From: a virus
Reading direction: 5' to 3' (one strand)
IMG/VR virus record: IMGVR_UViG_3300021964_000017
DNA: 64,000 nt
Below the pieces are notes generated by a model. The model had not been told where the DNA came from. It was given only the letters and a program-made list of their open reading frames with translations, and ran no database searches. This document shows positions 22,384 through 63,882 of the stretch, piece by piece (the stretch's first letter is position 1; each line of letters starts with the position of its first letter). The position numbers and the translations under genes are program-made.

Positions 22384-22398
22384 TCTTTAACATGATGT

Positions 22399-22427: not shown

Positions 22428-22455
22428 CAATATTTCATAGTTGTTTCCCCCCAAA

Positions 22456-22644
22456 TCACGATCCCCACTTTTCACGTCCTTGAGTTTGCATTCTTACATG
22501 CCTTGTTGGAAGTTCAGCTTCTTGCTCGCCTAAATTTTCCCAACCTTCGTTTAGCTCTAACCATCGATTCAGTTGTTTGCTATCGTCGAATGTCATTTCA
22601 GTAACCATGCCATTGTTACGATTTATAATAGATACTTTTTTCAT
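22456..22644 (-). CDS. hypothetical protein
   Basis: ORF track; ATGA-coupled. Confidence 0.6.
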   Translation of the reverse strand: MKKVSIINRNNGMVTEMTFDDSKQLNRWLELNEGWENLGEQEAELPTRHVRMQTQGREKWGS

Positions 22645-22988: not shown

Positions 22989-23052
22989 ACTTAATCCTTA
23001 TCCCCACCATCCTAATTTAACTGTGTTATGTATAATACTCGTGTATGTGTGT

Positions 23053-23280
23053 CTACATCACTGTCCGTGTAGTATGTTGTGATTTTATTACCTGCTCATA
23101 CATAAAGAATAGTTGCTCAAACTTCCACTCATATAGCTGTTGCATACCTATCAAGGCGTTCATCATTTCATCGTGTGTAGGCTCACGTTCACCGTCACCT
23201 ATCTGCTTGAACACTGTCTCAAGGTCATTACAAACGTGCCAACAATCCATTATAGGTTGTTCAAGGTCGTGTAGTTGCAT
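23053..23280 (-). CDS. hypothetical protein (start revised to MQLHDLEQ)
   Basis: GGAG RBS before ATG at 23280; upstream part of track ORF overlaps the kdsB remnant. Confidence 0.65.
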
Positions 23281-23377
23281 TCCACTTCTCCATATCATAT
23301 GGTGTATTAATTTCAACACCGTTAAAGTCTACTTTACGCAAATGTACTTTGTGTCCATTAGCAATCCATCTTAGTTG
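23261..23377 (-). pseudogene. kdsB: C-terminal remnant of CMP-Kdo synthetase
   Basis: Startless frame [32 protein letters not shown] matches KdsB C-terminal (E)QLRxLxNG...(D/N)TPxD; directly after kdsA. Confidence 0.7.
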
Positions 23378-33500: not shown

Positions 33501-34564
33501 GCTATCTCTAGGGTTTGTGCCTCTATCATCAATCCACTCATCTCAACCTTAATCCGATCCTTATCTAGATCGGTATCAACAGCATCGATATAGCTGTTGA
33601 GAAGGGTAGGAGTATCATCCACTGAAACGCTTTGATCGTCAACAGCTGATCCGATAAACTCGTTAAAGTTTTCTGCGATCTTTAGTTCAAGGATGTTGCG
33701 GTTCTGGATGCGATCGATAAATCTATCGAATGTGAATGTATCAGACTTGTTAATAACAACAATCTTTACAAAGTGATTTTCTATACCTGAAAGATCATAG
33801 TGAAGATAGTCGTGCTTAGTGTCATCATACCTAATCCGATAGTGTAGAGTATGAGGATTACGAACGGCTTCGATAGTTCTGGTTTCTGTATCAAGGATGT
33901 GGAAATACTTAGCATCATGTGCATCATTCCAAAAGAACTCCATTTGTGAACCCAGATACATTATATTGTCTTGTTCTGATTTTGTATGAAAGTGACCAGA
34001 CAATACTCGCTCAAACCGTTTAAAGATAGATCGATCTAGTCCGTGCTCACACTTAATACCTTTCATCATCTCATATCCTTGGATATCAAAATGACCACCT
34101 AGCCAATCACACTTTGCGTTTGCAATGAAGTCTAGTGATTGTTTCTCGTTGGCATCATCAATCCATGGGACTAGGCCTATCTTCATAGATCCATATTCCA
34201 TAACCTTAGGCTCTTGAATGATTGTTACCTCATTCATATAATGACCCAATAGTTCCTTGAGAGAGTTTAGCTCACCAGTGTTCTTATAGAATGTATCATG
34301 GTTCCCACGAATAATATCCATGGTAATGCCATTATCCCTTAACGGTTTAAGGAAGTGATTACGGTTGCGGTTAAGAGCGCGGAAGTTAATAAATTTCCTG
34401 TTATCATAGTAATCACCAAGATGCACAATATGCTTAATATCATGTTCCAGAAGATAAGGAAAAAATACATCAGAATAAAATTTCTCTGCATTATTGAGAA
34501 ATACGTCAGAGCTATTGCGGATACCACAATGAGTGTCATTAAGAAGGGCAATTTTCATGATCAA
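33497..34564 (-). CDS. gp47: SbcD/Mre11-like nuclease
   Basis: DTHCG, GDYYD, GNHD, SGHFH. Confidence 0.95.
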   Translation of the reverse strand: MIMKIALLNDTHCGIRNSSDVFLNNAEKFYSDVFFPYLLEHDIKHIVHLGDYYDNRKFINFRALNRNRNHFLKPLRDNGITMDIIRGNHDTFYKNTGELNSLKELLGHYMNEVTIIQEPKVMEYGSMKIGLVPWIDDANEKQSLDFIANAKCDWLGGHFDIQGYEMMKGIKCEHGLDRSIFKRFERVLSGHFHTKSEQDNIMYLGSQMEFFWNDAHDAKYFHILDTETRTIEAVRNPHTLHYRIRYDDTKHDYLHYDLSGIENHFVKIVVINKSDTFTFDRFIDRIQNRNILELKIAENFNEFIGSAVDDQSVSVDDTPTLLNSYIDAVDTDLDKDRIKVEMSGLMIEAQTLEIA

Positions 34565-35303
34565 GTATGTTCCATTTTGGCGTCCAGCCTAGTTTCAACA
34601 GTGCTTCGATATTAGCTTTTGTGTGTACACGTTCTCCGTTAGGATTTGCATCACGCCATTCTCCTTGGAAGTTCATAACCTTAGCTACTTCTTCCACTGG
34701 TGTAGAGTGACCAGTGCCAATATCATAAACACGTTGACTCATTATAGCTGAATTGAAGTTGGAAAGCAACACTTGAATTGCTTCGACAACATCGTTTACA
34801 TGAACAAAGTCGCGAAAGTGCCCTCGATTGATATATTCAACTTCACCTCGTTTAAACTTCATGAATAACATATCATCACGACCAGGCCAGATAGTATGAA
34901 ATCTCATACCAATAGCTGGATAGTCTTCTGCTTGAATCTCATTCATCTTCTTAGTAGCGGCATATGGATTACCCCACCACTCGTATGCATTAGAAGAAGA
35001 AGCATATAAGATGTTACTATCATTTAGCTCAGAGAATGCTAGCATATGACGCATACCACCAACATTAACTTCCTCATACAGTTCTGGCGCATCAAATGAA
35101 GGTCTGACTCCAGCTAGAGCTGCAAGATGAATAATAGTATCTATAGGTTTAGATTCATCATGAAGTTCTGCCCAATGTTCCCAATTGCGGACGTCTTTAT
35201 CCTCTCCAAAGGTTACAACAGGATATCCTTTACCAACTAGATGTTTTACTAGCCGGCTTCCGACCATACCATCAGAACCTGTAATCAACAACCGCATAAT
35301 CAA
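34539..35303 (-). CDS. NAD-dependent epimerase/dehydratase
   Basis: TGSDGMVG, HLAALAGVR, ASSS, YAATK, RDFVHV.D. Confidence 0.9.
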   Translation of the reverse strand: MIMRLLITGSDGMVGSRLVKHLVGKGYPVVTFGEDKDVRNWEHWAELHDESKPIDTIIHLAALAGVRPSFDAPELYEEVNVGGMRHMLAFSELNDSNILYASSSNAYEWWGNPYAATKKMNEIQAEDYPAIGMRFHTIWPGRDDMLFMKFKRGEVEYINRGHFRDFVHVNDVVEAIQVLLSNFNSAIMSQRVYDIGTGHSTPVEEVAKVMNFQGEWRDANPNGERVHTKANIEALLKLGWTPKWNILDHENCPS

Positions 35304-49400: not shown

Positions 49401-49761
49401 TTGGTGTTACATCTTTCATCAATATCTTTTGCAGGTCAGCTGTTGATCCCACAAAAACATTATTATTAGTAGTACCAGTTGGAAGAGCAGGAGTATCCTT
49501 TTTTTCCATATCATGCTTCTTCTTGTGTAGGTCCATAAGAGAGCCGTTAATATCACCCATGTTCTTCATCATACCAGAGAGAACTTCAAACGCTCGAGGG
49601 TGCTCTGTAGCTCGAGCAACTTCCATCATATCTTCAAGAGCTTCAGAGCCCTTTGCTAAAAGATCGTGATAGATCTGTCTCGAGTACTCAAAGTCGTTTT
49701 CTTTATTATCATTCGAACTCATAGTCATATTCTTCCAAGAATCCATAATCACTGTCTGCAC
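49381..49761 (-). CDS. gp16: terminase small subunit
   Basis: DFEYSR, EHPRAFEV, NNVFVGSTADLQK. Confidence 0.92.
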   Translation of the reverse strand: MQTVIMDSWKNMTMSSNDNKENDFEYSRQIYHDLLAKGSEALEDMMEVARATEHPRAFEVLSGMMKNMGDINGSLMDLHKKKHDMEKKDTPALPTGTTNNNVFVGSTADLQKILMKDVTPIEQNDE

Positions 49762-50476
49762 TTACACCTGCAGGTGTGGGTGTAATTGTCATAGTTAAGT
49801 AATCACTATCAGCAATGCCTTTACTGTCTAAATCAATTTTAGGAATAGATTTTGTAATTACTTTACCATTGTTAAGTGGGCCATAGAAGTTAACTTTCAT
49901 ATCAAAATTCATTGTGTATATAATAGTTCTTCTTGACGCTAGATCACCCTCATAATCATCGTTGAAATCAACACTGGTAATAGTGATTGGAACATCTTCA
50001 ATTACGTTGGGGTAATCTGTAAAAGGTTTTATTGAAACATTATATTGTGGATTAAAATATGGTAAAATCTGCTCGACAATTTGAAGAGCATCATTCTGAG
50101 TTTTTGAATAAATATTCATTTGAAAACTAATAGTATATGGGACAAATGTGTTTATCTTTGTTCGTAGAGACGACGATGTCCCAGCTTGCTGAAAGTTTGT
50201 TGTTTTTTGCAGTTGTCTTGCTGGATCATAATTAATACCTACAATTTCAAAAGACATCCTAGGTAATTTAATTGCTACTCGTTGACCTTCTCCTAAATCA
50301 GCTTGTTCCCTAATCCTATCTAAAAATTTAGAACGAGGTGCATATGAAAGCGGAACTTTAACCTGACTGACAACTTGATTTGATGCGCCAACTCTCAGGA
50401 CGTATATATCGTTGAATAGTCTACCAAATGTAGCTACTGACTTTCGGATCCGTTCGTGATAGAAATAAGTAAACAT
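49709..50476 (-). CDS. gp15: tail sheath stabilizer / tail terminator
   Basis: YFYH..IRK....FG.LFN, VPLSY.P, LPRMSFE, QIVEQILPYF.P. Confidence 0.95.
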   Translation of the reverse strand: MFTYFYHERIRKSVATFGRLFNDIYVLRVGASNQVVSQVKVPLSYAPRSKFLDRIREQADLGEGQRVAIKLPRMSFEIVGINYDPARQLQKTTNFQQAGTSSSLRTKINTFVPYTISFQMNIYSKTQNDALQIVEQILPYFNPQYNVSIKPFTDYPNVIEDVPITITSVDFNDDYEGDLASRRTIIYTMNFDMKVNFYGPLNNGKVITKSIPKIDLDSKGIADSDYLTMTITPTPAGVSADSDYGFLEEYDYEFE

Positions 50477-51510
50477 TATGGCTCTCCGAATGGATTATTC
50501 TCAGAGAAGTCTAAGAAATCGGTTAATGTATCAAAGTAATCATTCTGCTCGTTTGCTGAAATCTTATTTTCTTCTGTCACTGAGAGAACTTCTCTCGTAT
50601 ATGTTGGACTACTTCCGGGACCTGAGAATACAATATCACTTCCCACAGCAAAAGTGTGATATTTTCCGTCATCTGCACCAACATGTACAAGATGTAAAAT
50701 ACCGTCTGAATCAGAGTACTTCGAGATCTCTCCTCTTATTTTTACACCACCTGATAATGTTTGGGTTGCGCTGTCGCCTTGTGATATATTAGTTCGTGGC
50801 GCTGTGGAAAATGTAATTGTAGGTGCAGTCACATAACCACCACCAATATCCGTTATTGACAATGCATTAACTGCTCCCCTACTATCGATAGTAGCGGATG
50901 CTGTTGCCCTAAAATCATTCGCTGTGCCACTAGCGGAGTCAATTGTTACTGATGGCGCAGAGTCGTAATCGGTACCTCCTAAAACAACATTAATACTACT
51001 TAATTTACCACCATCAGATCGATTAGTTCCACTTACTATAGCTGTTGCTGTTGTACCAGCTCTGGTACTGTCGATGTTAATTGTCGCAGCTTGCTCAGGG
51101 TTACTAAGAACAGTTGATACTACATCTCCTACAACGTAATTTTTACCACCATCAACAATAGTAAAACTTACTAAACCACCAGTGCTTGTAGATCTGATTA
51201 TAAGTCCAGTTCCCGACCCACCTGTTGTATTATAGTTTTGACCATTTATGTGACTCACACCAGTTGTGGCAATGCTTGCTCCGTCCACAATACCAGACTT
51301 TGGTGGACCAATTGTTACGTCAGGAATACTTGTGTAATACGCACCAGAATCTACTAAGCTAATTGCATTAACCACACCACCTGCACTCACAGTTGCTGTT
51401 GCTGTTGCAACAGCAGAATCAAGGTCAGGTATTGAGATTGTGATTGTGGGAGCTGATGTATACCCATATCCTGAATCGGTAAGTGAAAGTGATGTAATAG
51501 GACCCGCCAT
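50476..51510 (-). CDS. C-terminal half of split neck protein gp14 (GxGYTSAP repeats)
   Basis: Repeated G.GY..AP.(I/V)T units; ends with gp14-type QN..F....DFLDFSENNPFG. Confidence 0.75.
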   Translation of the reverse strand: MAGPITSLSLTDSGYGYTSAPTITISIPDLDSAVATATATVSAGGVVNAISLVDSGAYYTSIPDVTIGPPKSGIVDGASIATTGVSHINGQNYNTTGGSGTGLIIRSTSTGGLVSFTIVDGGKNYVVGDVVSTVLSNPEQAATINIDSTRAGTTATAIVSGTNRSDGGKLSSINVVLGGTDYDSAPSVTIDSASGTANDFRATASATIDSRGAVNALSITDIGGGYVTAPTITFSTAPRTNISQGDSATQTLSGGVKIRGEISKYSDSDGILHLVHVGADDGKYHTFAVGSDIVFSGPGSSPTYTREVLSVTEENKISANEQNDYFDTLTDFLDFSENNPFGEP

Positions 51511-52106
51511 TATGTTATACTCACTGTAGCAGTTGCTGTCTTAGCTGGGGGTACAGTAACTTTGTATGTGTACGCATAATCCACTTCAACCGAATCAACA
51601 TCCAGAATATTCGTATCCATATCCTCATCACCATATTCAAACAACTCACAACGGAGTTTAAACGTGGGTAGATTGTTTAACTGATAGAATGGCTGCTCGT
51701 GTTCAACGTGTGTGATCTCAAATATTTTACGAGAGAACGGAATGTAAAGTAAGTCACCTTCTTTGGGTCTATCAATCACAATTTCATTATCATGTCTGTA
51801 TACTGTTTGCGACCATCTACGGCGGGCAACAACAAAAGTGGCCTGGTCTCTAATTTCCACACCAAACTTAGTAAACAGATCACCTTCACCATCAAAACCA
51901 TCTACATTTTCAATATACATTTCAATCTTATATGATGAATTGAATCGTGAAGGAACATCTTCGCCCAACACTCTATCTTCATTCACAAGATCTCTTGGCA
52001 AATAGTAAATATCTTGACCATAGATTTTCAACGACTCTATGACAATATCTTCATAAAGACTCTGTTCTGATCGTACCGATTGACTGAAATATGGATTAGT
52101 TGCCAT
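51510..52106 (-). CDS. gp14: neck protein gp14, N-terminal core
   Basis: NPYF, EQ.L..D...ES...YG.D..Y.PR, KFG.E.RD, P.EGDL.Y.P, FEI..VEHE.PFYQL. Confidence 0.92.
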   Translation of the reverse strand: MATNPYFSQSVRSEQSLYEDIVIESLKIYGQDIYYLPRDLVNEDRVLGEDVPSRFNSSYKIEMYIENVDGFDGEGDLFTKFGVEIRDQATFVVARRRWSQTVYRHDNEIVIDRPKEGDLLYIPFSRKIFEITHVEHEQPFYQLNNLPTFKLRCELFEYGDEDMDTNILDVDSVEVDYAYTYKVTVPPAKTATATVSIT

Positions 52107-52109
52107 TGT

Positions 52110-52862
52110 TTATCCCACAAAGAAGTCTGCTGGCATCTCATGTTCAAGTCTGATCGTTTCTCTCAATCGCTCAATATCACCAGTTGCATCATCGTACAGT
52201 TGTCTACCATTAATCATAACACCGCCAGGTAGTTGCATACCCTCAAACTTCATTAGGTTTGCGCCCCATTGTTGTTTGATAAGAGCTGTGGTATATTCTT
52301 TTAGCCACATGTCATTATAGACTTTTGTGTGTGTATCTGCATCTATTGTTTCATAGATCTCTGCTACAATATAATCCCCAGCTTTAAGATCACCATCCTG
52401 GAATTCACCATGAATGTACAATCTGTTCTGCTTACGTGCAAATGTAATCTGTGGGGTACCATTAAGTCTCATGTCGAGCAAAGAAAGATACTGCTGCATC
52501 TGCTCATAATAAGCTAGATCTCCAATATATGAATGCATGTTAGCAATATCATTTAGATGTAATTGATACTTTATATCAAAGAAGTTCCGTGTAGAAGCAT
52601 CTCCATGCACTTTAAACATTTTTGATACAAACTGCACGTTGGAACTTAAAGTAATGTATTCATTGGTAACGTCATCAGCAGTCACTTGATGCTTAAGAAA
52701 AGTTCTAAGAGTGGCATCAGAATTAAACTCTTGATAGTACTGAATAGCCTCATCAACACGATCTTCTTGCTGATCAGGATCGACGTTGATCTCGATGACG
52801 GGATCACCTAGTCTACGTAGACAATACTCTATAAGAGTAGCTCTTGATGTTGGATTTGCCAT
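52110..52862 (-). CDS. gp13: neck protein
   Basis: YCLRRLG.PVI.INV, W.K.Y.TALIK.QWG.NL.KF.G..LPGG; late promoter 52891-52898. Confidence 0.95.
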   Translation of the reverse strand: MANPTSRATLIEYCLRRLGDPVIEINVDPDQQEDRVDEAIQYYQEFNSDATLRTFLKHQVTADDVTNEYITLSSNVQFVSKMFKVHGDASTRNFFDIKYQLHLNDIANMHSYIGDLAYYEQMQQYLSLLDMRLNGTPQITFARKQNRLYIHGEFQDGDLKAGDYIVAEIYETIDADTHTKVYNDMWLKEYTTALIKQQWGANLMKFEGMQLPGGVMINGRQLYDDATGDIERLRETIRLEHEMPADFFVG

Positions 52863-52904
52863 AACTTTATCCTCTAAGCAATATTAATACTATTTATAAA
52901 GCTA

Positions 52905-53150
52905 TTAATAGGTGTTTGCTACGCCGCCGTCTATTAGTGTCACGCGTGTTGTAACATAATCTGAATCTACAAGATCTTGTGTTACCGTGCCTCCAGCAAC
53001 ATAACCGAGTGAACTCCACGCAGTTGTCCCGTCACCAAGTTTTAGTTGACTAGTATTGGTCTCAACCCCCAATTCACCTTCTGATAAAATTGGATTGTTT
53101 GATGTCCAATTAGAAGCGGTGTCACGCCTTAACTGTAATTTTACTGCCAT
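52905..53150 (-). CDS. stand-alone Mtd-N / hyaluronidase-N-like fibre attachment domain
   Basis: QLRRDTA.NW...NP.L..GE.G.ET.T...K.GDG.TAW..L.Y. Confidence 0.75.
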   Translation of the reverse strand: MAVKLQLRRDTASNWTSNNPILSEGELGVETNTSQLKLGDGTTAWSSLGYVAGGTVTQDLVDSDYVTTRVTLIDGGVANTY

Positions 53151-53200
53151 AGAAATGTTCCTTTTTAACTCATAATAAAATCATATTTGGGTAATTGATA

Positions 53201-53665
53201 CTACGACCAATCTTCCTTAACGGGATTTGACCCGTATCCAGGAAACAATGTGTTTATAACCCCGTCTTCCCTAGGCAGATCTATACTATTATCAACAGAA
53301 TTGGGTCGTCTTCGAATCAAATTTTGCACTCCAATTCTACTACCTGTTAATAGAGTATTATAAGGAGAGTTGTCTGAATCACCAGCTAACAGATCACTAT
53401 CATAAAATAAACTTTTAGCATGAAGATTGTCACTATCGTACCATCTTAATATATTACTCTTAGCAAAGTTTGTTGTACCCGCTGAGATATATACAAGGTT
53501 TCCAATGTGTCCATATCCATCACTATCAGCTGAATCTAACATAAATTGTGTAAAGTGACGGGCTTCTTTCCAACCTACCCATGTTAGAGGGTATATAGTA
53601 TAATCTGAATCCACGGCACTTGTAATGTCTACAGCAGAATCCGGATGTAAATGTTCTAATGGCAT
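53201..53665 (-). CDS. hypothetical virion-module protein, Asp-Ser rich
   Basis: ORF track; seven DS motifs. Confidence 0.6.
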   Translation of the reverse strand: MPLEHLHPDSAVDITSAVDSDYTIYPLTWVGWKEARHFTQFMLDSADSDGYGHIGNLVYISAGTTNFAKSNILRWYDSDNLHAKSLFYDSDLLAGDSDNSPYNTLLTGSRIGVQNLIRRRPNSVDNSIDLPREDGVINTLFPGYGSNPVKEDWS

Positions 53666-53705
53666 ATCATACCCTCTTTAGATCTGGTATATTATAAAAT
53701 AATTA

Positions 53706-54953
53706 TTAATCGATTTCCATCATCCATGGTGATGAATTTGAATTGCCAAATAATTTATATTTCTTTCCGTTAATTGTAATTTCATCACCACTCACTCCCA
53801 TATCTCGAGATCCTTTATAAACACCACAAGTTGATGAAAAATCCAACACACCAGATCTCCAACTCGACATTTCAATTTGCCAAGGAGTCATAGGCAGAAT
53901 CTTTGTCCCGTCTGATTGTCTTGACATTCCCTGGCGGCCCCCGCCGGTACCTACAGCTTCTGAAGCATTGTGGCCAGGGCCTGGTGTATAGTAATTGGTA
54001 AATCCTCGTCCAAACGTCATATGATTGTTCCAATCGTTGGTGAAATAAGCGTAGTTGTCATTCTGGTACGATCTCGTCCCTCCATCTGTCCCATTATCTC
54101 CCACGGATTTGCACATCAACGAATAGAACCCCACATTTTGATTCCATATTCTAAAATGACTAAACCAAGGTTTTCTCGATTGGTAATAATCATAGTGTGA
54201 ACCGTATGGAAAAGCAATATAGGGTATTGGATAGTAGTTGTAACTCGTATTATTCCAATACCCCGATTCGCAATCTTTAGCGTAGGTGTACGTTTGATTT
54301 GTGCTCATACCTGAGGTAGCGTAGTTTTTCGAGAGGGACCACCAGTTAGTAGACAAATAACAGTGTGCTGTTAGATCATGATATTTTGTCCACCCATTTG
54401 TCTTCCACTCAAAAGATCCCTGCCATTTCGGACCGTCGATGACGGTGTTGTAGGCTTGATTTGCTCCCACAAGCACTAATTTTCTAGGAGTAGCAAAAAT
54501 CTCAATATCCCCAGCTATCCCATGAGACATAAGATGTGAGTGTGTCGTGTTGCTGGATGAGTATCCAAATATTTGTTCTTGAGATTCACCATAATCTCCA
54601 ACTGTACTAAGTAATGGATTTACTAATCCATTAGTGTTATTATAGACAGTCGAACTTGATATTGTACCTGGAAAAGTAATTATAACAGTTTTAGTCTTAC
54701 CATCCACAGTATTGCACTGTAGATAATATTTACCATCCTGTGTATAAGTTGCACTACCTGTTCCTAAAGTTTGGCCAGTCACGTGGGCCCAACCACTGTT
54801 TTTTCCAGCAATTAGTTTGCTGTTATTTACATTGATATATTCAAGGTCATTTAAGTTTGCAGTACCTCCATTCGAGGCTACAATAATCCTTACAATATCT
54901 CTAACTTTCTCCATCGGCTTAGTACCGCCTAGGAAATTTAATTTTGCATACAT
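53706..54953 (-). CDS. putative virion/receptor-binding protein, paralog B
   Basis: Shares N-terminus, IFATPRKL and C-terminal GDE.TI.GK.Y with 54959..56272. Confidence 0.65.
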   Translation of the reverse strand: MYAKLNFLGGTKPMEKVRDIVRIIVASNGGTANLNDLEYINVNNSKLIAGKNSGWAHVTGQTLGTGSATYTQDGKYYLQCNTVDGKTKTVIITFPGTISSSTVYNNTNGLVNPLLSTVGDYGESQEQIFGYSSSNTTHSHLMSHGIAGDIEIFATPRKLVLVGANQAYNTVIDGPKWQGSFEWKTNGWTKYHDLTAHCYLSTNWWSLSKNYATSGMSTNQTYTYAKDCESGYWNNTSYNYYPIPYIAFPYGSHYDYYQSRKPWFSHFRIWNQNVGFYSLMCKSVGDNGTDGGTRSYQNDNYAYFTNDWNNHMTFGRGFTNYYTPGPGHNASEAVGTGGGRQGMSRQSDGTKILPMTPWQIEMSSWRSGVLDFSSTCGVYKGSRDMGVSGDEITINGKKYKLFGNSNSSPWMMEID

Positions 54954-54958
54954 ATCAG

Positions 54959-56272
54959 TTATTCTTTCTCGATTAAAAGTGCACCTTTGGCGTATTGCTC
55001 AGAGTAATAGAAGTAATCTTTACCGTCAATTGTGAGTTCATCGCCGCATGATCCCAAGCCTCCGACTGTTATGAACATCCCACAGGTGTTATGAAATTTC
55101 ATAGACCCGGTACCGATCTGTTTTAACTCACCTACACATGGAATCATAGGGAATATAGTTGATCCATCTGAATCTATTAGACCATAATCCGGCTGGTAGG
55201 TATTACTACCCCCATTGTATATTCGATACATCTCTTGGGGCTCAAAGAAAGCAAATGAAGATTCCGTGAAATCATCTTGAGCTTGCCCTGGTTGTCCGTC
55301 ATATCGTTTACCTGTGGAGTAAAAGGGAGTTCCCCCATCGCGTGTTCCGTTTGAATATTGTGTCACTGAGTGGAATCCACCTGTGTCGGTACTGGTGGCG
55401 CCGAACACTCTAATCTGGCGAGAGACCACTCCCGAGTTCACATCATCTGGAAAATGGGAAAAATGAATCTCTGAAAATCCACCACCCATAGTCGATTGTT
55501 GATATGCGCCCGCATCGTCAATTTGACTGTTCTGGTCATACGGGCCTGTGAACATATTGAGAAGACCTGGATAACTGGTGTACCAGCCCAGGTCCCTGGA
55601 TCCATACGCTTTGGTTCTAGAGTGTAGACAGCACGTAGGATTTGTACCATAATATAGGGAAGTTCCATTTTCTTCATACTCAACATTAGCCATCATGGTT
55701 GGGGCATAGTAGCTATATACATATGAAGTTCCAATAAAAATAAGTTTGCGTGGTGTGGCAAAAATAGTAATCGTCGTAGAGGGGCTATTGCCGGCGTGGC
55801 CACCCAGCGCGAATCCATAATGCCTAAATCCTGTACCGCCTGTGCCAATATCCTGGGTCTCTGTAACACTTTCTGCACCAGTTACGCCGTACTCCAGCAC
55901 CGGCATCATACAATTATTTATATAAGGGTAGGAGTCGCTCCAGTTAGCGGAGTTGTCCCAGGCATTGTTGGTATAGATCCCAACATATTTTTTCTTGACC
56001 CCATCTGCGCAAGTACCTTCGAGCGCATAATATGAATCAGATTGCCCCACCGCTGTACCTGCAGCTGGTAATGCCGCAGGCGCAATATCAGAACCAGTGG
56101 CGATAGACCACCCACTATTTACACCCGCTACTAATGTTGATCCAGCCACATCAATAAACTCTAAATTGCTTAGGTTTGCACTACCTGTGCTTGAATCGTG
56201 AATAAGCCGCGCTATATCCCTATTACGTTTATTGGCCGACAGGCCGCCTGGAAAGGTTAGTCTAGCGAACAT
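54959..56272 (-). CDS. putative virion/receptor-binding protein, paralog A
   Basis: As above; late promoter at 56301-56308. Confidence 0.65.
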   Translation of the reverse strand: MFARLTFPGGLSANKRNRDIARLIHDSSTGSANLSNLEFIDVAGSTLVAGVNSGWSIATGSDIAPAALPAAGTAVGQSDSYYALEGTCADGVKKKYVGIYTNNAWDNSANWSDSYPYINNCMMPVLEYGVTGAESVTETQDIGTGGTGFRHYGFALGGHAGNSPSTTITIFATPRKLIFIGTSYVYSYYAPTMMANVEYEENGTSLYYGTNPTCCLHSRTKAYGSRDLGWYTSYPGLLNMFTGPYDQNSQIDDAGAYQQSTMGGGFSEIHFSHFPDDVNSGVVSRQIRVFGATSTDTGGFHSVTQYSNGTRDGGTPFYSTGKRYDGQPGQAQDDFTESSFAFFEPQEMYRIYNGGSNTYQPDYGLIDSDGSTIFPMIPCVGELKQIGTGSMKFHNTCGMFITVGGLGSCGDELTIDGKDYFYYSEQYAKGALLIEKE

Positions 56273-56314
56273 AGTTTAAAATCCTTTGTAGATATAACAT
56301 TATTTATAATTGTT

Positions 56315-57988
56315 TTATGTGGGGGTAAATAATAAATTGGCATATAGTCCAACTCCAGCGCTTGTAGATCCTACTTGTGTAATATCTATTGTGATATAAT
56401 CTCCCACAGCAAAGGAAACACTAACAGTGTTTCCTGTATCTGAAGTTTGTCCAGCTGGTAGAGTTATAGTTGCAGCAGTAGTACCGTTCTTTAATACGTC
56501 TATTGTGACGGCGGCACCGGTAGGAGCAGTTTCTACAAAAAGATCAACATTAGTCAAAGTTGAGGCAACATGAATATAGTTTCTAGCCGTACCAGTACTC
56601 AATCCCAGATCACCAGAATAGCTATATTTTTCACGGAATACGCTTGATCCTCCACCACCGCCAGATACTGTCCCAGGCTCAAACTTTGAGTCAGTACTAT
56701 TCCAAACAAGCGCTTGCCCGTTGGTAGGAGCTACCGATGTTGTATCAACATCTGATAACGCATCGATGCTAGTAGCTGAGATGATAGCAGATACTCCAGC
56801 AGAGTCAACGCCACTACTAGCCACTGTTCCAGGTTCAAACTCACTATTACTAGCATTCCAAATAAGTGCTTGCCCATTTGTAGGAGCCGCAGTTGTTATG
56901 TCGACGTCTGATAATACTCCAATGCTTTTTGTTGCAATATCAGTGTCAAGGATAGCAGATACTCCAGCAGAGTCAACGCCACCACCGCCACCACCAGATA
57001 CTGTCCCAGGCTCAAATCTCGAATTATCACTATCCCAGACAAGCGCTTGGCCGTTGGTAGGAGCTACCGATGTTATATCAACATCTGATAACGCATCGAT
57101 GCTCGCCGCCGCAATCCGAGCATCAGCTCTAGTGTTGGTGTAGTAAAGATTTGTGCCCTCAGATAGATAAGTTGTCGTCCTTGCAGCGATCCACGTATCT
57201 GCTGTAGAGTTAAAATCAGAAGACGATAACTTAGCAGCAATACTATTTGTTATCGTTGTACTAAAATCAGAATCATCATTAATAGCTGCAGCTAATTCAT
57301 TTAAAGTATTAAGAGCGTCAGGAGCAGAACCCACTAACGCATCAATTTTTAGTTGAGCTCTAGTATCCGCACGAGCATCTGTGTAATAAAGGTTAGTCGA
57401 ACCTTCACTCAAATCATCTGTTGTTTTTGAGGCTAGATCAGAATCAAAGTCTGAATCTGTGTACCCTCCAAGATTACGTGGCGCCCAATATGAATTACTA
57501 GCATCCCAGGTAAGAGCGTCACCTTCTGAGGGAGTTATAGTTGTGGTATTAACATCCGCTAACGCATTAATACTAGCTAGAGATATTCTAAGATCCGCAT
57601 CACTATCTGCTCGTGCAGTTGTATAATAAAGATTAGTACCTTCTGATAGATCGGATGTAGATTTACTACTAAGGTCTAAATTAGATCCAGTTTGTAAGTT
57701 TATTCTCGTATCTGCTCTAACGTCTGTAAAATATAGGTTGGTACCTTCAGTGATATCTGAAGTAGTTGCCGCGGCGACCGCTGAATCTGCTGCAGCATTA
57801 GCAATGGTTGTCGCCGCTGCACTATCAAACGAATTGATTCCTACAAGAGAATTAAATGCTGTTGCGCTGTCTCCAACTTTAAACAGGCCGGTGTCAGTTA
57901 CAAAAGCTGGCTCACCTGCATTCAACACTGGGTTTGCCGAACTCCAGTTTGCTGCTGTATCTCTTCTTACCTGAATTCTTGTTGGCAT
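56315..57988 (-). CDS. tail fibre protein
   Basis: Mtd-N-like start, EG.NLY(Y/F)T..RA repeats, LSDVD....PTNGQAL.W repeats; late promoter 58031-58038. Confidence 0.8.
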   Translation of the reverse strand: MPTRIQVRRDTAANWSSANPVLNAGEPAFVTDTGLFKVGDSATAFNSLVGINSFDSAAATTIANAAADSAVAAATTSDITEGTNLYFTDVRADTRINLQTGSNLDLSSKSTSDLSEGTNLYYTTARADSDADLRISLASINALADVNTTTITPSEGDALTWDASNSYWAPRNLGGYTDSDFDSDLASKTTDDLSEGSTNLYYTDARADTRAQLKIDALVGSAPDALNTLNELAAAINDDSDFSTTITNSIAAKLSSSDFNSTADTWIAARTTTYLSEGTNLYYTNTRADARIAAASIDALSDVDITSVAPTNGQALVWDSDNSRFEPGTVSGGGGGGVDSAGVSAILDTDIATKSIGVLSDVDITTAAPTNGQALIWNASNSEFEPGTVASSGVDSAGVSAIISATSIDALSDVDTTSVAPTNGQALVWNSTDSKFEPGTVSGGGGGSSVFREKYSYSGDLGLSTGTARNYIHVASTLTNVDLFVETAPTGAAVTIDVLKNGTTAATITLPAGQTSDTGNTVSVSFAVGDYITIDITQVGSTSAGVGLYANLLFTPT

Positions 57989-58091
57989 ATTATTTAGATC
58001 CTTTACTCAACATCGAGCTATCGATGTGACTATTTATAATAGTCATAAATTACACTTTGTCTGATTATTTTAATTTGTTGTAACATTTATA

Positions 58092-58955
58092 TCACGCAGC
58101 CCCTCGTAGATTAATAATATCTATGGTACTATAGACACTAGTAGCAGTTCCACAATCATCGAATATGTCAAAGGATGAGCTCGCAGTACCACAATCAATA
58201 ATGTCTACTACAGCGCCAGCAGGAGGCGCAGCAACCCAATTTGTACCGTTGTATGCAAGGACATTGTCAGTTGACGGATTAGCAACGGACACATTTGATA
58301 GGTCATTAAGAACATTCTGTGTAATGTTTGACTTTTGCACGTTGTCATCGGAATCAAGTACTGATATAGTATCATCGTAATTCTTTAAAACGAACTCTCC
58401 CAAATGTAAGGTCCTAAAACTACGTGTAGTAGAACCTATATTGTAAAATTCGCTTACTTCCGGAATGATATGGTTAGCATTACCATCTAGGTGTGTATCA
58501 ACAATATCACCAACAGCTGCAGAATCGATACCTCCTGAACCTCCTGAACTTTGATTCACCCAATCGTAATCAGTGCCATTCCAACTTAATACTTGATTAC
58601 TTGTTGCTGTACTTGTGTTTAGATGTGTGTCTACATCAGTTTCTGTAAAAGTAATTTGTCTAGCCTGAACATAATCAGAATCAATTAATGCGGATATCCC
58701 GGCCGAATCTACCCCGCCTGAAGCTGCAGCAATTAACGCTACGTCAGCAGAATCAAGAACATTTGGAGCTCCGGTCAATGAGCTGTAAGCAAAGTCCTGA
58801 GCTGTTTGACGAGCCTGTATATAATCGCTGTCAATCAATACGATGGTCTGAGCAGAATCTAAGCCTCCAGCAATAAGCACGCCGTTTGAGTCGAGACTTT
58901 CCGTAACGAATTCGGGTAATCGTTGAGCTAGAAAAAATCCTTGGGATATCGTCAT
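58092..58955 (-). CDS. tail-fibre-like virion protein
   Basis: IDSDY.QARQ repeats, VL.(W/Y)NGT.W motifs. Confidence 0.7.
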   Translation of the reverse strand: MTISQGFFLAQRLPEFVTESLDSNGVLIAGGLDSAQTIVLIDSDYIQARQTAQDFAYSSLTGAPNVLDSADVALIAAASGGVDSAGISALIDSDYVQARQITFTETDVDTHLNTSTATSNQVLSWNGTDYDWVNQSSGGSGGIDSAAVGDIVDTHLDGNANHIIPEVSEFYNIGSTTRSFRTLHLGEFVLKNYDDTISVLDSDDNVQKSNITQNVLNDLSNVSVANPSTDNVLAYNGTNWVAAPPAGAVVDIIDCGTASSSFDIFDDCGTATSVYSTIDIINLRGAA

Positions 58956-59036
58956 TGGGTTGTTCCTTAATTATACTCTGGTGTTATATGATTGTCGAGT
59001 TAATTGAATGTGAGAGAGGATGTTAGGAATTCCATA

Positions 59037-59405
59037 TTATGTTGGACTCGATTCAGCATCCCAGCTTTGAGTATTTTCATTCCAAGTGTACAAAGACCCA
59101 TCTGTAGGATATGCTACTGGAGGTTGCCATAAACAAGTTTCTTCATTTAGAACCCAAGAGTTGTAATGCTTTGGAGGAATAAATGCATCGCGCTCAGAGT
59201 CATACGTATATCCCGCACCAGCAAAGTTCTTACGGAACGATCCGTTATAACTCGTCTGAATCCACGTCCCGCCTAGCAAGTTGCGGCAGAATTCTTGACC
59301 TTTTGATTCTTGCTCTACGCCGTTATCGTCTAGCAATTCGTTATTATCAACAACAATTATTTGTTGAACGATATTGTTTAATCCTATTTCTGCAAAGTGT
59401 GCCAT
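59037..59405 (-). CDS. fibre-associated protein (MAHFA family)
   Basis: MAHFAE, WIQTSYNG.FRKNFAG.G.TYD..RDAFIPP, W.PP..YP. Confidence 0.75.
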   Translation of the reverse strand: MAHFAEIGLNNIVQQIIVVDNNELLDDNGVEQESKGQEFCRNLLGGTWIQTSYNGSFRKNFAGAGYTYDSERDAFIPPKHYNSWVLNEETCLWQPPVAYPTDGSLYTWNENTQSWDAESSPT

Positions 59406-59416
59406 TATATATCCTA

Positions 59417-60316
59417 TTAGATTGTAATTGAACCGGATCCGGTGAATGTGTAGATCTTGTAAGATCCATCCTGAGACACTGTGGGAGATCCTGTCGTTGC
59501 TGTAGCTGTAAGTAATGAGCGAAGAATTACAACACCAGAACCGCCAGCGCCGGATCCAGTCTGAGATACTCCTGTGGAGGTGGGGGTGCGAGCACCTGCA
59601 CCACCACCACCTGTGTTGTTTGTTCCACTTGGTGCAGGCCCGCCAGTAGTTATACCGTCGGCACCGCCCCCAAGCCCGCCTGTGCCTGCCGGACCATTGT
59701 TTGATCCACGACTAGCTGCGCCTCCACCTGCGTAATAAGTTGCCGTCCCTGTTATTGATGATTGAATCCCGTCACCGCCGTCTACACCTGATCCAGCAGC
59801 GCCAGCTCCTCCGCCACCACCACCGGCGTAGCTGGCATAACTTGACGATCCTGCATTACCTTGACCAGCTACTCCTGCGCCCGGGCCGGTGGCATAAGAT
59901 GCACCGCCACCAGATCCACCGCTGATGCTGCCTGTTGGATTAGTGTTATATGTTGCGCCTGCGCCTCCTCCTGTAGCCTCCACATCACCGAAAGAGCTAT
60001 CACCTCCTGAACTCCATGAATTACTAGAGTATGTATATGCCGGGATTGCCGTACCACCAGCGCCAATAACTACCGAGTAGGTAGATGCCACTGCCGCCGA
60101 TAACGTTCCAGTCAGAATCCCGCCGGCTCCACCACCGCCACCGGCCCAACCGCCACCAGCCCCGCCACCGGCCACAACCAAGTATTCTATCTCTGGTGGC
60201 GGTGGTGGCCAGGTACTATTATTTTGTTGTTGTTCAGCAAGCGACCATATGCCTGAAGCGCCTGAATCTGCCGGCGTATTTAATGGCCCTACGCGCCCAC
60301 CATTACCCCGACTCAT
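59417..60316 (-). CDS. glycine-rich virion/fibre-tip protein
   Basis: EYLVVAGGG.GG, YYAGGG, NTGGGG, GGSGVVI.R, YTFT.SG. Confidence 0.8.
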   Translation of the reverse strand: MSRGNGGRVGPLNTPADSGASGIWSLAEQQQNNSTWPPPPPEIEYLVVAGGGAGGGWAGGGGGAGGILTGTLSAAVASTYSVVIGAGGTAIPAYTYSSNSWSSGGDSSFGDVEATGGGAGATYNTNPTGSISGGSGGGASYATGPGAGVAGQGNAGSSSYASYAGGGGGGAGAAGSGVDGGDGIQSSITGTATYYAGGGAASRGSNNGPAGTGGLGGGADGITTGGPAPSGTNNTGGGGAGARTPTSTGVSQTGSGAGGSGVVILRSLLTATATTGSPTVSQDGSYKIYTFTGSGSITI

Positions 60317-60669
60317 CAGCTAATCTCCTCATATGAGCAAACCGCTTGTAATGTTGTGTTGGCATTTGCTGTCAGTCTCAGCGAATCCCCCTCCATCAAA
60401 TATATGGCCTTACTAATAACATCGAGCGTTGCATCTGCGGGAACGACAACTGTCTTTGCAATGTGGTATGCAGTTGTCGATCGATACAAGTCAACATTCA
60501 CTTCACCAAAAGTTGTTCCGTCAACGTTACTGACATACAGAGCGCTCACTTTGATTACTTTGCCGCTGGCAGCGTTGTTAGTAATAATTGCAGTAGCGGT
60601 TGTTGTGATTGCTTGAACAGCCGTATTACCGGTGATTGTTGTTAGACTTAATAAGTTAGGATTGGCCAT
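60316..60669 (-). CDS. small fibre-associated virion protein
   Basis: MANPN, VSNVDG, VPADATL, YL.EGDSL, SYEEIS. Confidence 0.75.
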   Translation of the reverse strand: MANPNLLSLTTITGNTAVQAITTTATAIITNNAASGKVIKVSALYVSNVDGTTFGEVNVDLYRSTTAYHIAKTVVVPADATLDVISKAIYLMEGDSLRLTANANTTLQAVCSYEEIS

Positions 60670-60672
60670 TAT

Positions 60673-63600
60673 TTAAGCTCCGAATAAAATTGAATATGCA
60701 AAAACTGCGCTTGTGTTGGTACCACCACCGCCACTTGATACTCTGGCATTAATATAATCAGAATCAATAAGATTAATAGTAGCTGCAGAATCAATACCAC
60801 CACCCGCAGCCCCCGCCGTAGCAAACGATAGTTGCCCACTGCCATCTGTTTGTAGCACTTGATTGGCAGTGCCGTCTGAGGTTGGAAACTTGTATGCGTT
60901 GTTGAATGTAATAGCACCACTATCGTTACCATCAATCTTAAATTGCACATCACTCAAATTACTGGCATCAACTGATGTACCGTCTGTGGTAACCGCAACC
61001 GTAAACTGTGTTCTGTTTTGATCGTTAGTGTTGTCAAAAGCAAACTGTCCACCAACAATAAGTGCTGAACCATTATAGTATTCGTGATTACTTCTATAAA
61101 GATAATCACCTGAGTCAATTGCAAGTGGTGAGGCAATTGTACCTCTGTATCTTCTTGTTCTTAAATCTGGAGCGTCAGCACTGTTATTGTACTGCTCCAT
61201 ACGGACCTGTGCTGTTTGAGCACCCTCGCCCGTCATGTGTAGTGTTACTTCAGGCGAGGATTGGTTAATACCCAATCTATTGTTTGAAGTATCCATTGCT
61301 AGTGTACCATTACTTGCAATACTAGTTCCATCCGAACCTACAACAAGTAGTTCATTGGCAGTACCCAGTGTAATACCAGTAACACCATCCAGTAGATTTA
61401 ATTCTGCTACTGTGCTAGTAAGTGCTGTGGTTCCATCATTTAGGGTTGAATAGGTCACTGTACCAGTAGTGGTAGTTATATCTCCACTAACTGTTAATGT
61501 ACCAGTGGTATTAATGTCTCCCGTGCCTGTTATATCATTACTGTTTAGATCTAAATCGCCGCCCAGTTGTGGTGTAGTGTCTTCAACTACATTGTCTAGT
61601 CCGCCTGCTGAAATAGTAGTCCAACTTAATTGTCCACTACCATTTGTTTTTAACACTTGATCCGCAGTACCATCAGCCTGAGGCCAATTTACACCATCTA
61701 ATACAATTGAACCAGTAGTGTCTGGAGTAATAGCAATGTTGCCACCACTTGCACTTACAATTGAATTTCCGTTTACGTCTAAATTGCCACCTAGTTGTGG
61801 TGTAGTGTCTTCTACTAGGTTTTCTAATTCGTTGCCAGTTGCACTAGTAATGCCTGCTTCACTTGCACTTTGGTTGATCCAGTTGCCCGAAGATGAATCA
61901 TAAGCAAGAATATCGTTGTCTGCAACTGTAGTAATGTCTACATCGCCAATATCAACAATGTTAGCAACACTAGCAGTTGGTTGATCCCAACTTAGGTTAC
62001 CTGCACCGTCTGTTTTTAGAAAATAATTTGCTGTGCCATCTGCTGTGGGCCAACTTAGCCCGTCTAAAATAATTTTACCAGTTGTGTCTGGCGTAATAGC
62101 AATGTTGCCAGCACTTACACTGACAATACTGTTTCCATTTACGTCTAAGTTGCCGCCTAATTGTGGAGTTATATCATCAACTACGTCTACTCTTGCTTGA
62201 ATGTAGTCGCTATCGATTAAGTTAATGACTTCTGATGAGTCTAGACTACTACCTCCTGCAGCAACGTTTAATTGTCTTGCTTGAATGTAGTCGCTATCGA
62301 TTAAGTTAATGATTTCTGATGAGTCAAGATTACTAACTCTTGCAGCAAAGTTGTGAACAGCAAGTTGATCGCCGCTGTCAGCTGCTTGGGTCAATACGAT
62401 TGTAGATCCATTTGACGCATAGTCGTCCGAATCCTTTAGCAAGATACCATTCAAGAATACAAGAATTTGATCTTCGGTGTGTGCAACTGTAAAAGATGTT
62501 TGACCACTGGTTGCTGTTTGTACATCCGCTGTAAGTGTAGTACCACTAGCTGCTGCTGCTGATACTCTGGCATTAATATAATCAGAATCAATAAGATTAA
62601 TAGTAGCTGCAGAATCAAGTAAACTATCAAAGTTTAATTGTCTTGCTTGAATATAAGCCGAATCAACAAGTGAAAGAACTTCAGCTGAATCCAAGAAATC
62701 ATATGTAAGCTGATTGGCTTGAATATAACTTGCATCTATAACACCGGTAACAGTAGTTGAATCCAAATAATTAGCATCATTTATGAATGAACTTACATTC
62801 GTTGGAGCACCAGTTAATGAACCATATGCATAGTCTTGTCTTGCCTGGACATATGCAGAATCAATTAATGAAATTGCCTCGGCCGAATCCAGATAGGTTG
62901 TATCAATTAGACCTGTAACATATGTCTGATCAATGACACCAGTAACTGTTGTACTGTCAAGATAATTAGCATCATTTATGAATGAACTTACATTTGTAGG
63001 AACACCAGTTAACGAACTGTATGCATAATCTTGTCTGGCCTGAACATAAGCTGAATCAACAATGCCAGTTACAAAAGCCGAATCACGGAATATATCTACT
63101 TGTCTTGCTTGAATGTAGTCGCTATCGATTAAGTTAATGACTTCTGATGAGTCAAGTAAACTATCAAAGTTTAATTGTCTTGCTTGAATGTAGGCTGAGT
63201 CAACATAAGCGTTGACTCTTGCGTCAGTATAGTATAGATTTGACGAACCTTCGCTTAGATTGTCAGTATCAAAGCCTGTTAGTGTGCGAGAATTGGTTTG
63301 TACAGAGTTACCCATGTATCCATGAGCAGTACACTGATAATGTAATACCGTTGGAGTAGAATCTGTAATAGTAATTTCGGTATATGCCCCAGCAACACCA
63401 GCGGAACCGTTGACAGTTACATCAGTAGAGTAGGTAGTTGTCTTAGCTGCATCATAATAAAAATTAATAGGATGACTATTATTAGAACTGTGAGATTGAT
63501 CAAACCTATATGTCCGGCCAGGAGTAAGCGTAAGGAAAGGAGAAAAGACACCATCAATTTTATAACCAGCGCTAGATCCTTGACCATTATATCTGTGAGT

Positions 63601-63882
63601 GGAATCTTTAGTTGCAACTGTTACTACAAATGTTACAACGCTGCCATGAGGAGCTTGAAGATATTTAAAACCTTTGATAACAGAGGATGTTACAGAATCT
63701 TTAATCTGCAGAGCTGTATGGCTTGAGTCCGCAATATTTTTAATTTCATTTGAACTATTTTTAAAATAAACTAGCTCGTCAGCGTAGTTTATTGCCAATT
63801 CGCCATATTCTAAATCATCTGCTGCTGGTATTCGACCAGCAACCGACGACTTTTTTAGCTTCAGCTTAGTATTCGTAGCCAT
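60673..63882 (-). CDS. long repetitive tail fibre protein
   Basis: LKKSS..GR.P....L.YGELAINYAD N-terminus; (I/V)DS(D/A)Y.QAR repeats; DTTPQLGG.LD.N repeats; P..DG.A.QVL.T.GSG.LS. Confidence 0.85.
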   Translation of the reverse strand: MATNTKLKLKKSSVAGRIPAADDLEYGELAINYADELVYFKNSSNEIKNIADSSHTALQIKDSVTSSVIKGFKYLQAPHGSVVTFVVTVATKDSTHRYNGQGSSAGYKIDGVFSPFLTLTPGRTYRFDQSHSSNNSHPINFYYDAAKTTTYSTDVTVNGSAGVAGAYTEITITDSTPTVLHYQCTAHGYMGNSVQTNSRTLTGFDTDNLSEGSSNLYYTDARVNAYVDSAYIQARQLNFDSLLDSSEVINLIDSDYIQARQVDIFRDSAFVTGIVDSAYVQARQDYAYSSLTGVPTNVSSFINDANYLDSTTVTGVIDQTYVTGLIDTTYLDSAEAISLIDSAYVQARQDYAYGSLTGAPTNVSSFINDANYLDSTTVTGVIDASYIQANQLTYDFLDSAEVLSLVDSAYIQARQLNFDSLLDSAATINLIDSDYINARVSAAAASGTTLTADVQTATSGQTSFTVAHTEDQILVFLNGILLKDSDDYASNGSTIVLTQAADSGDQLAVHNFAARVSNLDSSEIINLIDSDYIQARQLNVAAGGSSLDSSEVINLIDSDYIQARVDVVDDITPQLGGNLDVNGNSIVSVSAGNIAITPDTTGKIILDGLSWPTADGTANYFLKTDGAGNLSWDQPTASVANIVDIGDVDITTVADNDILAYDSSSGNWINQSASEAGITSATGNELENLVEDTTPQLGGNLDVNGNSIVSASGGNIAITPDTTGSIVLDGVNWPQADGTADQVLKTNGSGQLSWTTISAGGLDNVVEDTTPQLGGDLDLNSNDITGTGDINTTGTLTVSGDITTTTGTVTYSTLNDGTTALTSTVAELNLLDGVTGITLGTANELLVVGSDGTSIASNGTLAMDTSNNRLGINQSSPEVTLHMTGEGAQTAQVRMEQYNNSADAPDLRTRRYRGTIASPLAIDSGDYLYRSNHEYYNGSALIVGGQFAFDNTNDQNRTQFTVAVTTDGTSVDASNLSDVQFKIDGNDSGAITFNNAYKFPTSDGTANQVLQTDGSGQLSFATAGAAGGGIDSAATINLIDSDYINARVSSGGGGTNTSAVFAYSILFGA
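60736..63153. repeat. near-exact intragenic DNA repeats in fibre gene
   Basis: 59-bp exact pair 60736-60794 / 62560-62618; 51-bp triple 62191-62241, 62275-62325 (1 mismatch), 63103-63153. Confidence 0.85.

Follow-up and report, generated by a model that had tools for sequence, protein, structure and literature searches.

The question raised by this locus is why the dipeptide Asp-Ser (DS) recurs so insistently in the tail fiber and neck proteins of an uncultured marine T4-like phage, represented by the IMG/VR record IMGVR_UViG_3300021964_000017, of which a stretch of 64,000 nucleotides (hereafter, the window) was analyzed. The original prediction, made from the letters alone, took DS for a candidate modification sequon, with a phage-encoded enzyme decorating the Ser on exposed parts of the virion. 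The answer that we favor, and to which we assign a probability of about one half, is that DS is a structural start signal of short helices in the fibers, without any chemistry on the Ser.

The hand counts from which the question arose are all exact: DS occurs 30 times in a fiber protein of 1069 amino acids (aa), 11 times in a 557-aa protein, 8 times in a 287-aa protein, 9 times in the 344-aa C-terminal half of gp14, 7 times in a 154-aa protein, and 3 times in the last 40 aa of gp15, compared to 3 in gp43, 1 in gp41, and none in a 415-aa paralog. The features of the region that matter for the argument are the following.

60673..63882, minus strand: tail fiber, 1069 aa, 30 DS; N-terminus 50% identical to the Melnitz tail fiber, matching phrog_30742 (tail fiber)
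62173..63207, minus strand: residues 226-570 of this fiber, an array of ~18-aa units with linker modules, holding about 22 of the 30 fiber DS; residues 226-445 modeled with AlphaFold2; at least 994 homologous proteins
58092..58955, minus strand: p287, fiber-type protein with two repeat copies, 8 DS; 1356 cluster representatives; AlphaFold2 model
56315..57988, minus strand: p557, fiber protein with an Mtd_N N-terminus and NLYYTDAR and GGGG-VDSAGVSAI repeats, 11 DS
54959..56272, minus strand: p437, fiber-region protein without assigned function, 4 DS (not significant)
53706..54953, minus strand: p415, paralog of p437, 0 DS
53201..53665, minus strand: p154, orphan, 7 DS (z 4.1)
52110..52862, minus strand: gp13-like head-tail adaptor, 0 DS
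51510..52106, minus strand: N-terminal neck domain of gp14 as a separate open reading frame (ORF), 1 DS
50476..51510, minus strand: C-terminal half of gp14 (gp14C), with GYxxxPxVTI-type beta repeats, 9 DS (z 3.5)
49709..50476, minus strand: gp15, tail sheath stabilizer, 255 aa (PF16724, E 1.7e-68)
49739..49828, minus strand: C-terminal tail of gp15, residues 217-246, with LDSKG, ADSDYLT, and ADSDYGF

Expected numbers of DS were taken from composition-keeping shuffles, performed per protein and pooled, with the 13 proteins of the region set against the 54 other ORFs of the window. In the fiber, the 30 DS compare with 10.8 expected (z 7.0), making DS the top dipeptide of that protein; p154 (z 4.1), gp14C (3.5), p287 (2.7), and p557 (2.0) follow, and the other proteins of the region are not significant. 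Pooled over the 13 proteins, there are 77 DS vs 35.5 expected (z 7.9), and none of the dipeptides to be compared has a comparable excess (SD 1.16x, DT 0.63x, ES 0.62x). The enrichment grows with the context, from 4.6x for DS[ADSG] and 7.4x for DS[AD] (47 vs 6.4) to 17.7x for [ILVFYM]DS[AD] (32 vs 1.8), with DSDY reaching 10 vs 0.1. In the 54 other ORFs, DS is found 55 times vs 57.8 expected (0.95x), that is, the excess is limited to outer virion proteins.

Such an excess might, in principle, merely reflect composition and recent tandem duplication in the absence of any selection on DS: the D and S contents of these proteins are high, and 25 of the 77 DS duplicate a context that is already represented. 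Repeat copies make up roughly one third of the raw excess. We consider this explanation highly improbable. The z of 7.9 is what is left with composition kept, next to an SD value close to unity. Repeat correction, carried out by clustering the DS contexts (BLAST self-masking was dropped because it masked whole S/T/G-rich proteins), collapses the 77 DS to 52 distinct contexts, where ~32 would be expected (35.6 multiplied by 0.89, the value of the median dipeptide; Poisson P 6e-4), and DS keeps the first place in enrichment among the abundant dipeptides. D and S are, furthermore, the most conserved columns over more than 1000 diverged copies of the fiber repeat described below, and the Ser residues of DS are encoded by both the TCN and the AGY codon families, which places the excess at the protein level. 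The enrichment is, accordingly, confirmed as real, asymmetric, and due to repeat copies in part but not wholly. One corollary of the original prediction, namely, that the lack of DS in p415 betrays a recent import or a different location, does not follow; the protein is indeed a paralog, of p437 (28% identity, E 1e-30), and zero DS is within chance for it (1.9 expected).

Most of the fiber DS (about 22 of 30) stand at the start of one or the other half of an ~18-residue unit, LDS(A/S)E(V/A)I(N/S)L(I/V)DS(A/D)Y(I/V)QAR. In the form LDSxEVINLIDSxYIQAR, the unit is amphipathic, with the core motif phi-D-S-(A/D)-x-phi (phi, a hydrophobic residue) at the start of each half. The unit is also present in p287 and, as GGGG-VDSAGVSAI, in p557, and the N-terminus of p154, DSAVDITSAVDSDYTIY, resembles a single copy of it. 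The repeat is undescribed and very common in marine phages. Among the candidates scored, at least 994 long proteins are homologous to the fiber repeat region, and the search with p287 recovered 1356 representatives of 50%-identity clusters, so that the DS-carrying repeat ranks among the commonest building blocks of marine phage fibers (more than 1300 clusters at 50% identity). It has neither a name nor a Pfam model nor a solved structure: no Pfam model covers that part among the homologues, and PDB sequence searches with the fiber and p287 gave no usable match. Exact-word patterns found no DS-repeat relatives in 185,579 prokaryote genomes, and among 50,697 deposited phages, S-B68 is the only match to the repeat region. 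As a cultured carrier of the DS units, S-B68 had to be rejected: it matches through the AYSSLTGxPTNVS linker, not the DS units, and is therefore used here only as a DS-normal control. The linker QDFAYSSLTGxPNVLDS together with the ~18-aa repeat (62173-63207 and 58092-58955) is a candidate for the definition of a new repeat family. p557 is built from an N-terminus of the Mtd_N type, (S)EGTNLYYTxxRA repeats in four copies, and three SDVDITxxAPTNGQALVW(D/N)S.NS.FEPGTV repeats between Gly runs.

The homologues make it possible to see what the repeat preserves. Across 119 of them, the median ratio of observed to expected DS is 3.6, next to 0.89 for SD, and the logo over their 6162 DS contexts has I/L/V at -1 (65%), A/D at +2 (65%), V/I at +4 (63%), hydrophobic residues at +7 and +8, and D at +9 (35%), as expected of a short helix of amphipathic character. 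The third residue of the motif is A in 52% of these contexts, D in 13%, S in 9%, G in 8%, T in 7%, and V in 2%; position +3 is occupied by Y (29%), T (10%), D (10%), or E (6%). When the more than 1000 diverged copies are aligned on Y[IV]xAR, with neither D nor S required, D (97%) and S (92%) come out as the most conserved free columns. Where the Ser is lost, Ala (5%) takes its place more often than Thr (1%), suggestive of a constraint on size at this position, and among 982 repeat units, there are 870 DS and 4 DT. The notion that every D-T has been turned into D-S in the DS-rich phages is ruled out, given that the conserved fiber motif ALDTLNELA retains its Thr in DS-rich loci.

Where in the fold these residues might lie was approached with AlphaFold2 models of p287 (23 sequences, predicted local distance difference test, pLDDT, 54) and of fiber residues 226-445 (27 repeat segments, pLDDT 60), both computed as monomers and both mostly helical. 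In the fiber model, 6 of the 8 helices start right after the Asp of a DS, at D+1 (P 2.5e-6), and another 6 DS are internal to longer helices. For p287, three of the seven helices start at D+1 and two more at D+2 (5/7, P 1e-5). Because the models are monomers of fibers that must be trimeric, of low confidence, and in disagreement on the second DS, they are taken only for the helix starts, which DS appears to mark. Mapping on predicted structures was proposed in the original prediction; most DS turn out to be the conserved opening pair of a helical repeat unit, which allows an ordinary structural reading. In the fiber-type proteins of Phage C48C1, which has the closest deposited DNA polymerase (54% identity at most, followed by cyanomyophages at 47-48%), DS likewise opens other helical repeats, such as DSEVNALIDSKI. 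The baseplate-fiber connector of the same phage (L032, 20106-24812) contains a different helical repeat, ELRSEIRTDSEVNALIDSKITEFDQSLDLVTDSDITSATNSVK..., each segment of which opens with DS.

Under the reading that we favor, phi-D-S-(A/D)-x-phi would start short amphipathic helices in the fiber shafts of an uncultured marine T4-like clade, with the Asp serving as the helix N-cap (Asx motif), the Ser as the first helical residue, and the hydrophobic residues at -1 and +4 forming a hydrophobic staple. Two helix starts 9 residues apart would make up the ~18-residue unit, and this unit would have been duplicated within fiber genes and shuffled between them, with single copies (DSDY and the like) in p154 and the gp15 tail that are probably docking sites of fibers or whiskers. 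We infer that capping, together with the setting of register in a trimeric shaft, is the cause of the conservation, with no Ser chemistry involved.

The copying of a single repeat does not account for the DS in gp14C, the gp15 tail, and p154. For these proteins, the claim that DS occurs in unrelated contexts stands; for most of the sites, which open helical repeat units, it does not. In gp14C, the 9 DS are found mostly as phi-DS after a beta strand in the GYxxxPxVTI-type repeats. The ortholog in a complete relative (G011, 62% identical) contains 12 DS vs 4.2 expected, with 6 columns in common, and two close relatives with an unsplit gp14 (L002 and L003) have DT, NT, VV, DQ, or DG in the DS columns. 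The split of gp14 (50476-52106) is an observation in its own right: one ORF, of 198 aa, encodes the neck domain, and the other, of 344 aa, has a beta-repeat domain inserted before the conserved C-terminus. G011 shares the split, whereas gp14 is single and canonical in L002, L003, and G001. ADSDYLT and ADSD[YF]GF are found in the gp15 tail, with DSD[YF]GF kept in 19/19 clade members, including C48C1; the second site reads DDDFGF in Syn33 and DGDFGF in Melnitz. For p154, the sole homologue found is one 96%-identical protein.

A further reading is metal binding or docking, whereby DS, along with the following Asp, would provide Ca2+ or Mg2+ ligands or contacts between fiber subunits and neck, stabilizing the extracellular parts in sea water. 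The motif is acidic (often DSD, DSDY, or DSADSDG) and confined to extracellular parts of the virion, and DSD[YF] is common to the gp15 tail and the fiber repeats. We nevertheless deem such a role unlikely, considering that no canonical DxDxDG or EF-hand pattern is seen, that the commonest third residue is Ala, at 52%, and that the marine T4-like phages Melnitz, Mosig, and S-B68 manage without the motif.

The modification proposed originally can now be worded more sharply: phi-D-S-(A/D) would be the sequon by which a cytoplasmic transferase of the phage O-modifies the Ser on fiber, outer baseplate, and neck proteins prior to assembly, giving the particle a sugar coat, and the helix-start position would simply expose the Ser. 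We regard this as a tentative possibility. The sugar genes of the window give its context.

21120..24146, minus strand: sugar-nucleotide cassette (UDPG/GDP-mannose-dehydrogenase-like, cytidylyltransferase-like, cupin, KdsA-like DAHP_synth_1)
34539..35303, minus strand: NAD-dependent sugar epimerase/dehydratase

The cassette is situated between uvsX and the gene upstream of gp43, and its cytidylyltransferase-like protein is a 144-aa member of PF01467. The scan of the window ORFs revealed no glycosyltransferase, no PF01973 match, and no NeuB-type (nonulosonate synthase) or KdsB-type family, and the GNGxS motif occurs in no window frame. Of the sugar genes and the phage enzyme that the original prediction invokes, the window offers sugar-nucleotide genes and, among the ORFs scanned, no glycosyltransferase. 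Genes of these kinds are listed among the lipopolysaccharide-related auxiliary genes of pelagimyophages (PMC7029224), and the published reading of the lipooligosaccharide-type transferases of such phages, modification of the host O-chain (PMC7029224), speaks against a role in decorating the virion.

A candidate enzyme is, however, encoded by relatives. Two of those in IMG/VR, G003 and G001, have a protein of ~200-226 aa that starts with VIGNGDSA and is putatively MptE/Maf-like; under the modification hypothesis, this MptE/Maf/sialyltransferase-like protein, possibly with the clade's glycan island, would do the work. If such islands instead serve to modify the host O-chain, the small enzyme would extend glycans and not initiate them on proteins. 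It has more than 1000 homologues without Pfam annotation and is found in 570 IMG/VR stretches. The likeness to Maf is weak by sequence, with E values of 0.002 to 0.06 against PF01973 in 9 of 23 members, below the 34.6-bit cut-off; a PDB sequence search with the profile of the small enzyme gave no match naming a transferase, and the ESM Atlas search provided a lead only. As a probe, PF01973 misses the enzyme of G001, and a protein or profile query was therefore used instead. The only deposited phages with this enzyme are C48C1 (41.5% identity) and, distantly, the siphophage DSL-LC06, whose homologue (22% identical) is annotated as a sialyltransferase. DSL-LC06 was considered as a second DS lineage and rejected, its excess being weak (z 3.2) and restricted to a single protein of 25, from the distal tail.

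The distribution of the small enzyme follows that of DS-rich fibers. G001 (fiber z 9.6), G003 with its DS-rich locus, and the complete genome G011 (fiber z 7.9) all encode it, as does C48C1, with DS[AD]-rich helical repeats in three proteins. Of five long contigs picked solely for the enzyme, four carry DS-repeat fibers, and the fifth is 55% complete. The complete genomes of S-B68, Melnitz, and Mosig lack both the enzyme and any DS excess, and a set of five DS-rich IMG/VR contigs is only 13-27% complete, making enzyme absence there uninformative. Some proteins of the enzyme-carrying phages are poor in the motif. Four giant proteins of C48C1 contain no DS[AD] vs 5.6 expected, and the orthologs of the baseplate wedge protein gp6 (G011:C1:112719-114551, G001:C1:62486-64315, and L032, that is, C48C1, 17300-19150) contain 1 DS vs 5.1, 1 vs 4.6, and 2 vs 4.2, respectively, together 4 vs 13.9 expected, next to 6 vs 5.2 in the gp6 of Mosig. 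This scarcity may reflect avoidance or inheritance. The co-occurrence and the gp6 pattern together fit a tag recognized by an enzyme and kept out of proteins that should not bear it. Common descent, however, explains both equally well: a single clade holds all the positives, and the gp6 proteins are orthologous to one another. The comparison across genomes suggested in the original prediction thus comes out as expected in that enzyme-carrying genomes are DS-rich and enzyme-less ones are not, but all the enzyme-carrying cases come from a single clade.

How do the two main readings fare against this evidence? Several observations count against the view of DS as a helix start signal. A generic N-cap would accept Thr, Asn, Glu, and Asp far more than observed; the supporting models, with their pLDDT of 54 and 60, are monomers that disagree as to whether the second DS starts a helix; the 9 DS of gp14C sit in a beta-rich domain and give way to other residues in close relatives; the 54 other proteins of the window do not use phi-DS-[AD] at helices (4 vs 2.8); the gp6 orthologs of the clade are DS-poor, whereas that of Mosig is not; and DS-rich fibers co-occur with the small MptE/Maf-like gene in relatives. 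In favor of a tag on the Ser are the confinement of the enrichment to outer virion proteins, the strong preference for Ser over Thr, the occurrence of DS in the non-homologous contexts of gp14C, p154, and the gp15 tail, the DS-poor gp6 of enzyme-carrying genomes, the giant C48C1 proteins devoid of DS[AD], the presence of enzyme homologues in G001, G003, G011, and C48C1 together with the lack of DS excess in the enzyme-less genomes, and the precedents of mycobacteriophage virion O-glycosylation and of the SdgA/SdgB system. Against the tag stand the window without a transferase or, among its sugar genes, a nonulosonate synthase or KdsB, the sub-threshold likeness of the small enzyme to Maf, the restriction of the co-occurrence to one clade, the published assignment of the transferases to the host O-chain, and the replacement of Ser by Ala more often than by Thr. 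That the transferase or transferases of the clade O-glycosylate the Ser at exposed helix starts and in neck proteins, sparing the inner baseplate proteins, is, in our estimate, possible but less likely than not. Of the interpretation as a modification sequon, then, the foundation has stood, in that the excess is real after correction, arises at the protein level, and is confined to the outer virion; the superstructure has fared less well, with no transferase in the window and a poor fit to the system of Bacteroidota cited for it (see below). The structural and the tag readings are not mutually exclusive.

The setting of the locus is that of a T4-like myovirus, with gp43, gp41, gp44/62, gp45, gp46/47, UvsW/X/Y, gp23, gp20, gp18, gp19, the terminase, and gp15, all on the minus strand. 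In the order of transcription, the region encodes the 1069-aa fiber, p117, p299 (Gly_rich_2), p122, p287, p557 (Mtd_N), p437, p415, p154, gp13, the split gp14 (198-aa neck domain and 344-aa C-terminal half), and gp15. Parts of the fiber match the Melnitz (OM43) and Mosig (SAR11) myophages, and a megablast search of the region against phages returned no match. The region corresponds to the fiber end of the 'host recognition cluster' known from pelagimyophages, which adjoins gp14 (Zaragoza-Solas et al. 2020, PMC7029224). Elsewhere in the window, a 111-aa protein encoded between the prohead protease and the portal (43506-43841), with 25 Asp among its 111 residues and no Pfam match, may be an acidic internal head protein, and three conserved-looking ORFs amid the replication genes (35300-35899, 36018-36677, and 24337-25335; 199, 219, and 332 aa) belong to no Pfam family at E 0.01.

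Either outcome would be of consequence. If DS is only a helix cap, it still provides a clean signature by which fiber shafts can be annotated and their register set. A modified Ser would amount to a readable sugar-coat code on abundant ocean phages, with a bearing on host recognition, particle stability, and the escape of virions from grazers or enzymes, and a direct target for proteomics; a true sequon would be the first sequence-defined code of virion glycosylation in phages of Gram-negative marine hosts. In either case, a single protein fragment (p287) together with a single candidate enzyme is now enough to put the hypothesis to the test.

It remains to compare the motif with known systems. 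O-glycosylation in Bacteroidota takes place on the periplasmic side, on exported proteins, at the sequon D-(S/T)-(A/I/L/V/M/T), whereas the virion proteins of tailed phages fold and assemble in the cytoplasm. The likeness consists in the Asp before a hydroxy-amino acid and in Ala as a common third residue. The differences weigh more heavily: Thr is nearly excluded here (DT 0.63x in the region; 4/982 units), and of the third residues, A, T, and V agree with the sequon, whereas D (13%), S (9%), and G (8%) fall outside it. Together with the cellular compartment, this makes the analogy drawn in the original prediction a poor one.

Maf enzymes (PF01973), for example, in Magnetospirillum, are soluble and cytoplasmic and add sugars to Ser/Thr of a filament protein before assembly; flagellin glycosylation is not known to follow a strict sequon. 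The ~200-aa protein of the relatives of the phage has a GNGDS start and is weakly similar to PF01973; it is, however, not encoded in the window and falls below the Pfam cut-off. Donor genes of the Maf type (a NeuB/PseI-type synthase and a CMP-synthetase) were not found among the window ORFs scanned.

In staphylococci, SdgA and SdgB glycosylate the Ser of Ser-Asp repeats (PMC3794999, PMC8561734), likewise Asp-flanked Ser on a fiber-like surface protein. Those are, however, long uninterrupted SD arrays in a disordered stalk, unlike the single DS ~9 residues apart in helical repeats that are seen here, where the longest run is DSDFDSD, and no SdgB-like enzyme with the GT-B (glycosyltransferase B) fold was seen among the window ORFs scanned. 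O-glycosylation of mycobacteriophage virions, going by the account of Freeman 2023 as cited in PMC12801897, is a precedent among phages. The arrangement typical of it, Ser/Thr-rich C-terminal extensions on capsid or tail-tube subunits whose genes adjoin phage transferase genes, was not found here: the major capsid protein has 2 DS vs 1.8 expected and the tail tube protein 1 vs 0.9, and no transferase adjoins either gene in the window.

In the hypervariable host recognition cluster of pelagimyophages and cyanomyophages, the transferases are assigned to modification of the host O-chain, and the paper on that cluster does not describe the DS motif or the ~18-aa repeat (PMC7029224). The layout is alike, with fiber genes upstream of gp13/gp14, and in these phages, sugar genes and transferases accompany the fibers.

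The closest parallel to the favored reading is helix capping. The N-terminal capping motifs of helices include the Asx N-cap, the capping box, and the hydrophobic staple (Harper and Rose 1993; Munoz, Blanco and Serrano 1995). The Asx N-cap with hydrophobic patches at N' and N4 is an established helix-start motif (PMC11101637). Here, the Asp directly precedes a predicted helix in the low-pLDDT models, and I/L/V at N' (-1) and V/I at N4 (+4) resemble a hydrophobic staple, with the motif often following a Gly-rich linker; a capping box, for which N3 should be acidic or an amide, is limited to a minority of units, those of the LDSSEV type. Compared to generic capping, the motif is far stricter, with Ser 92% conserved at N1 and Thr nearly excluded, and it is confined to the outer virion proteins of one phage clade.

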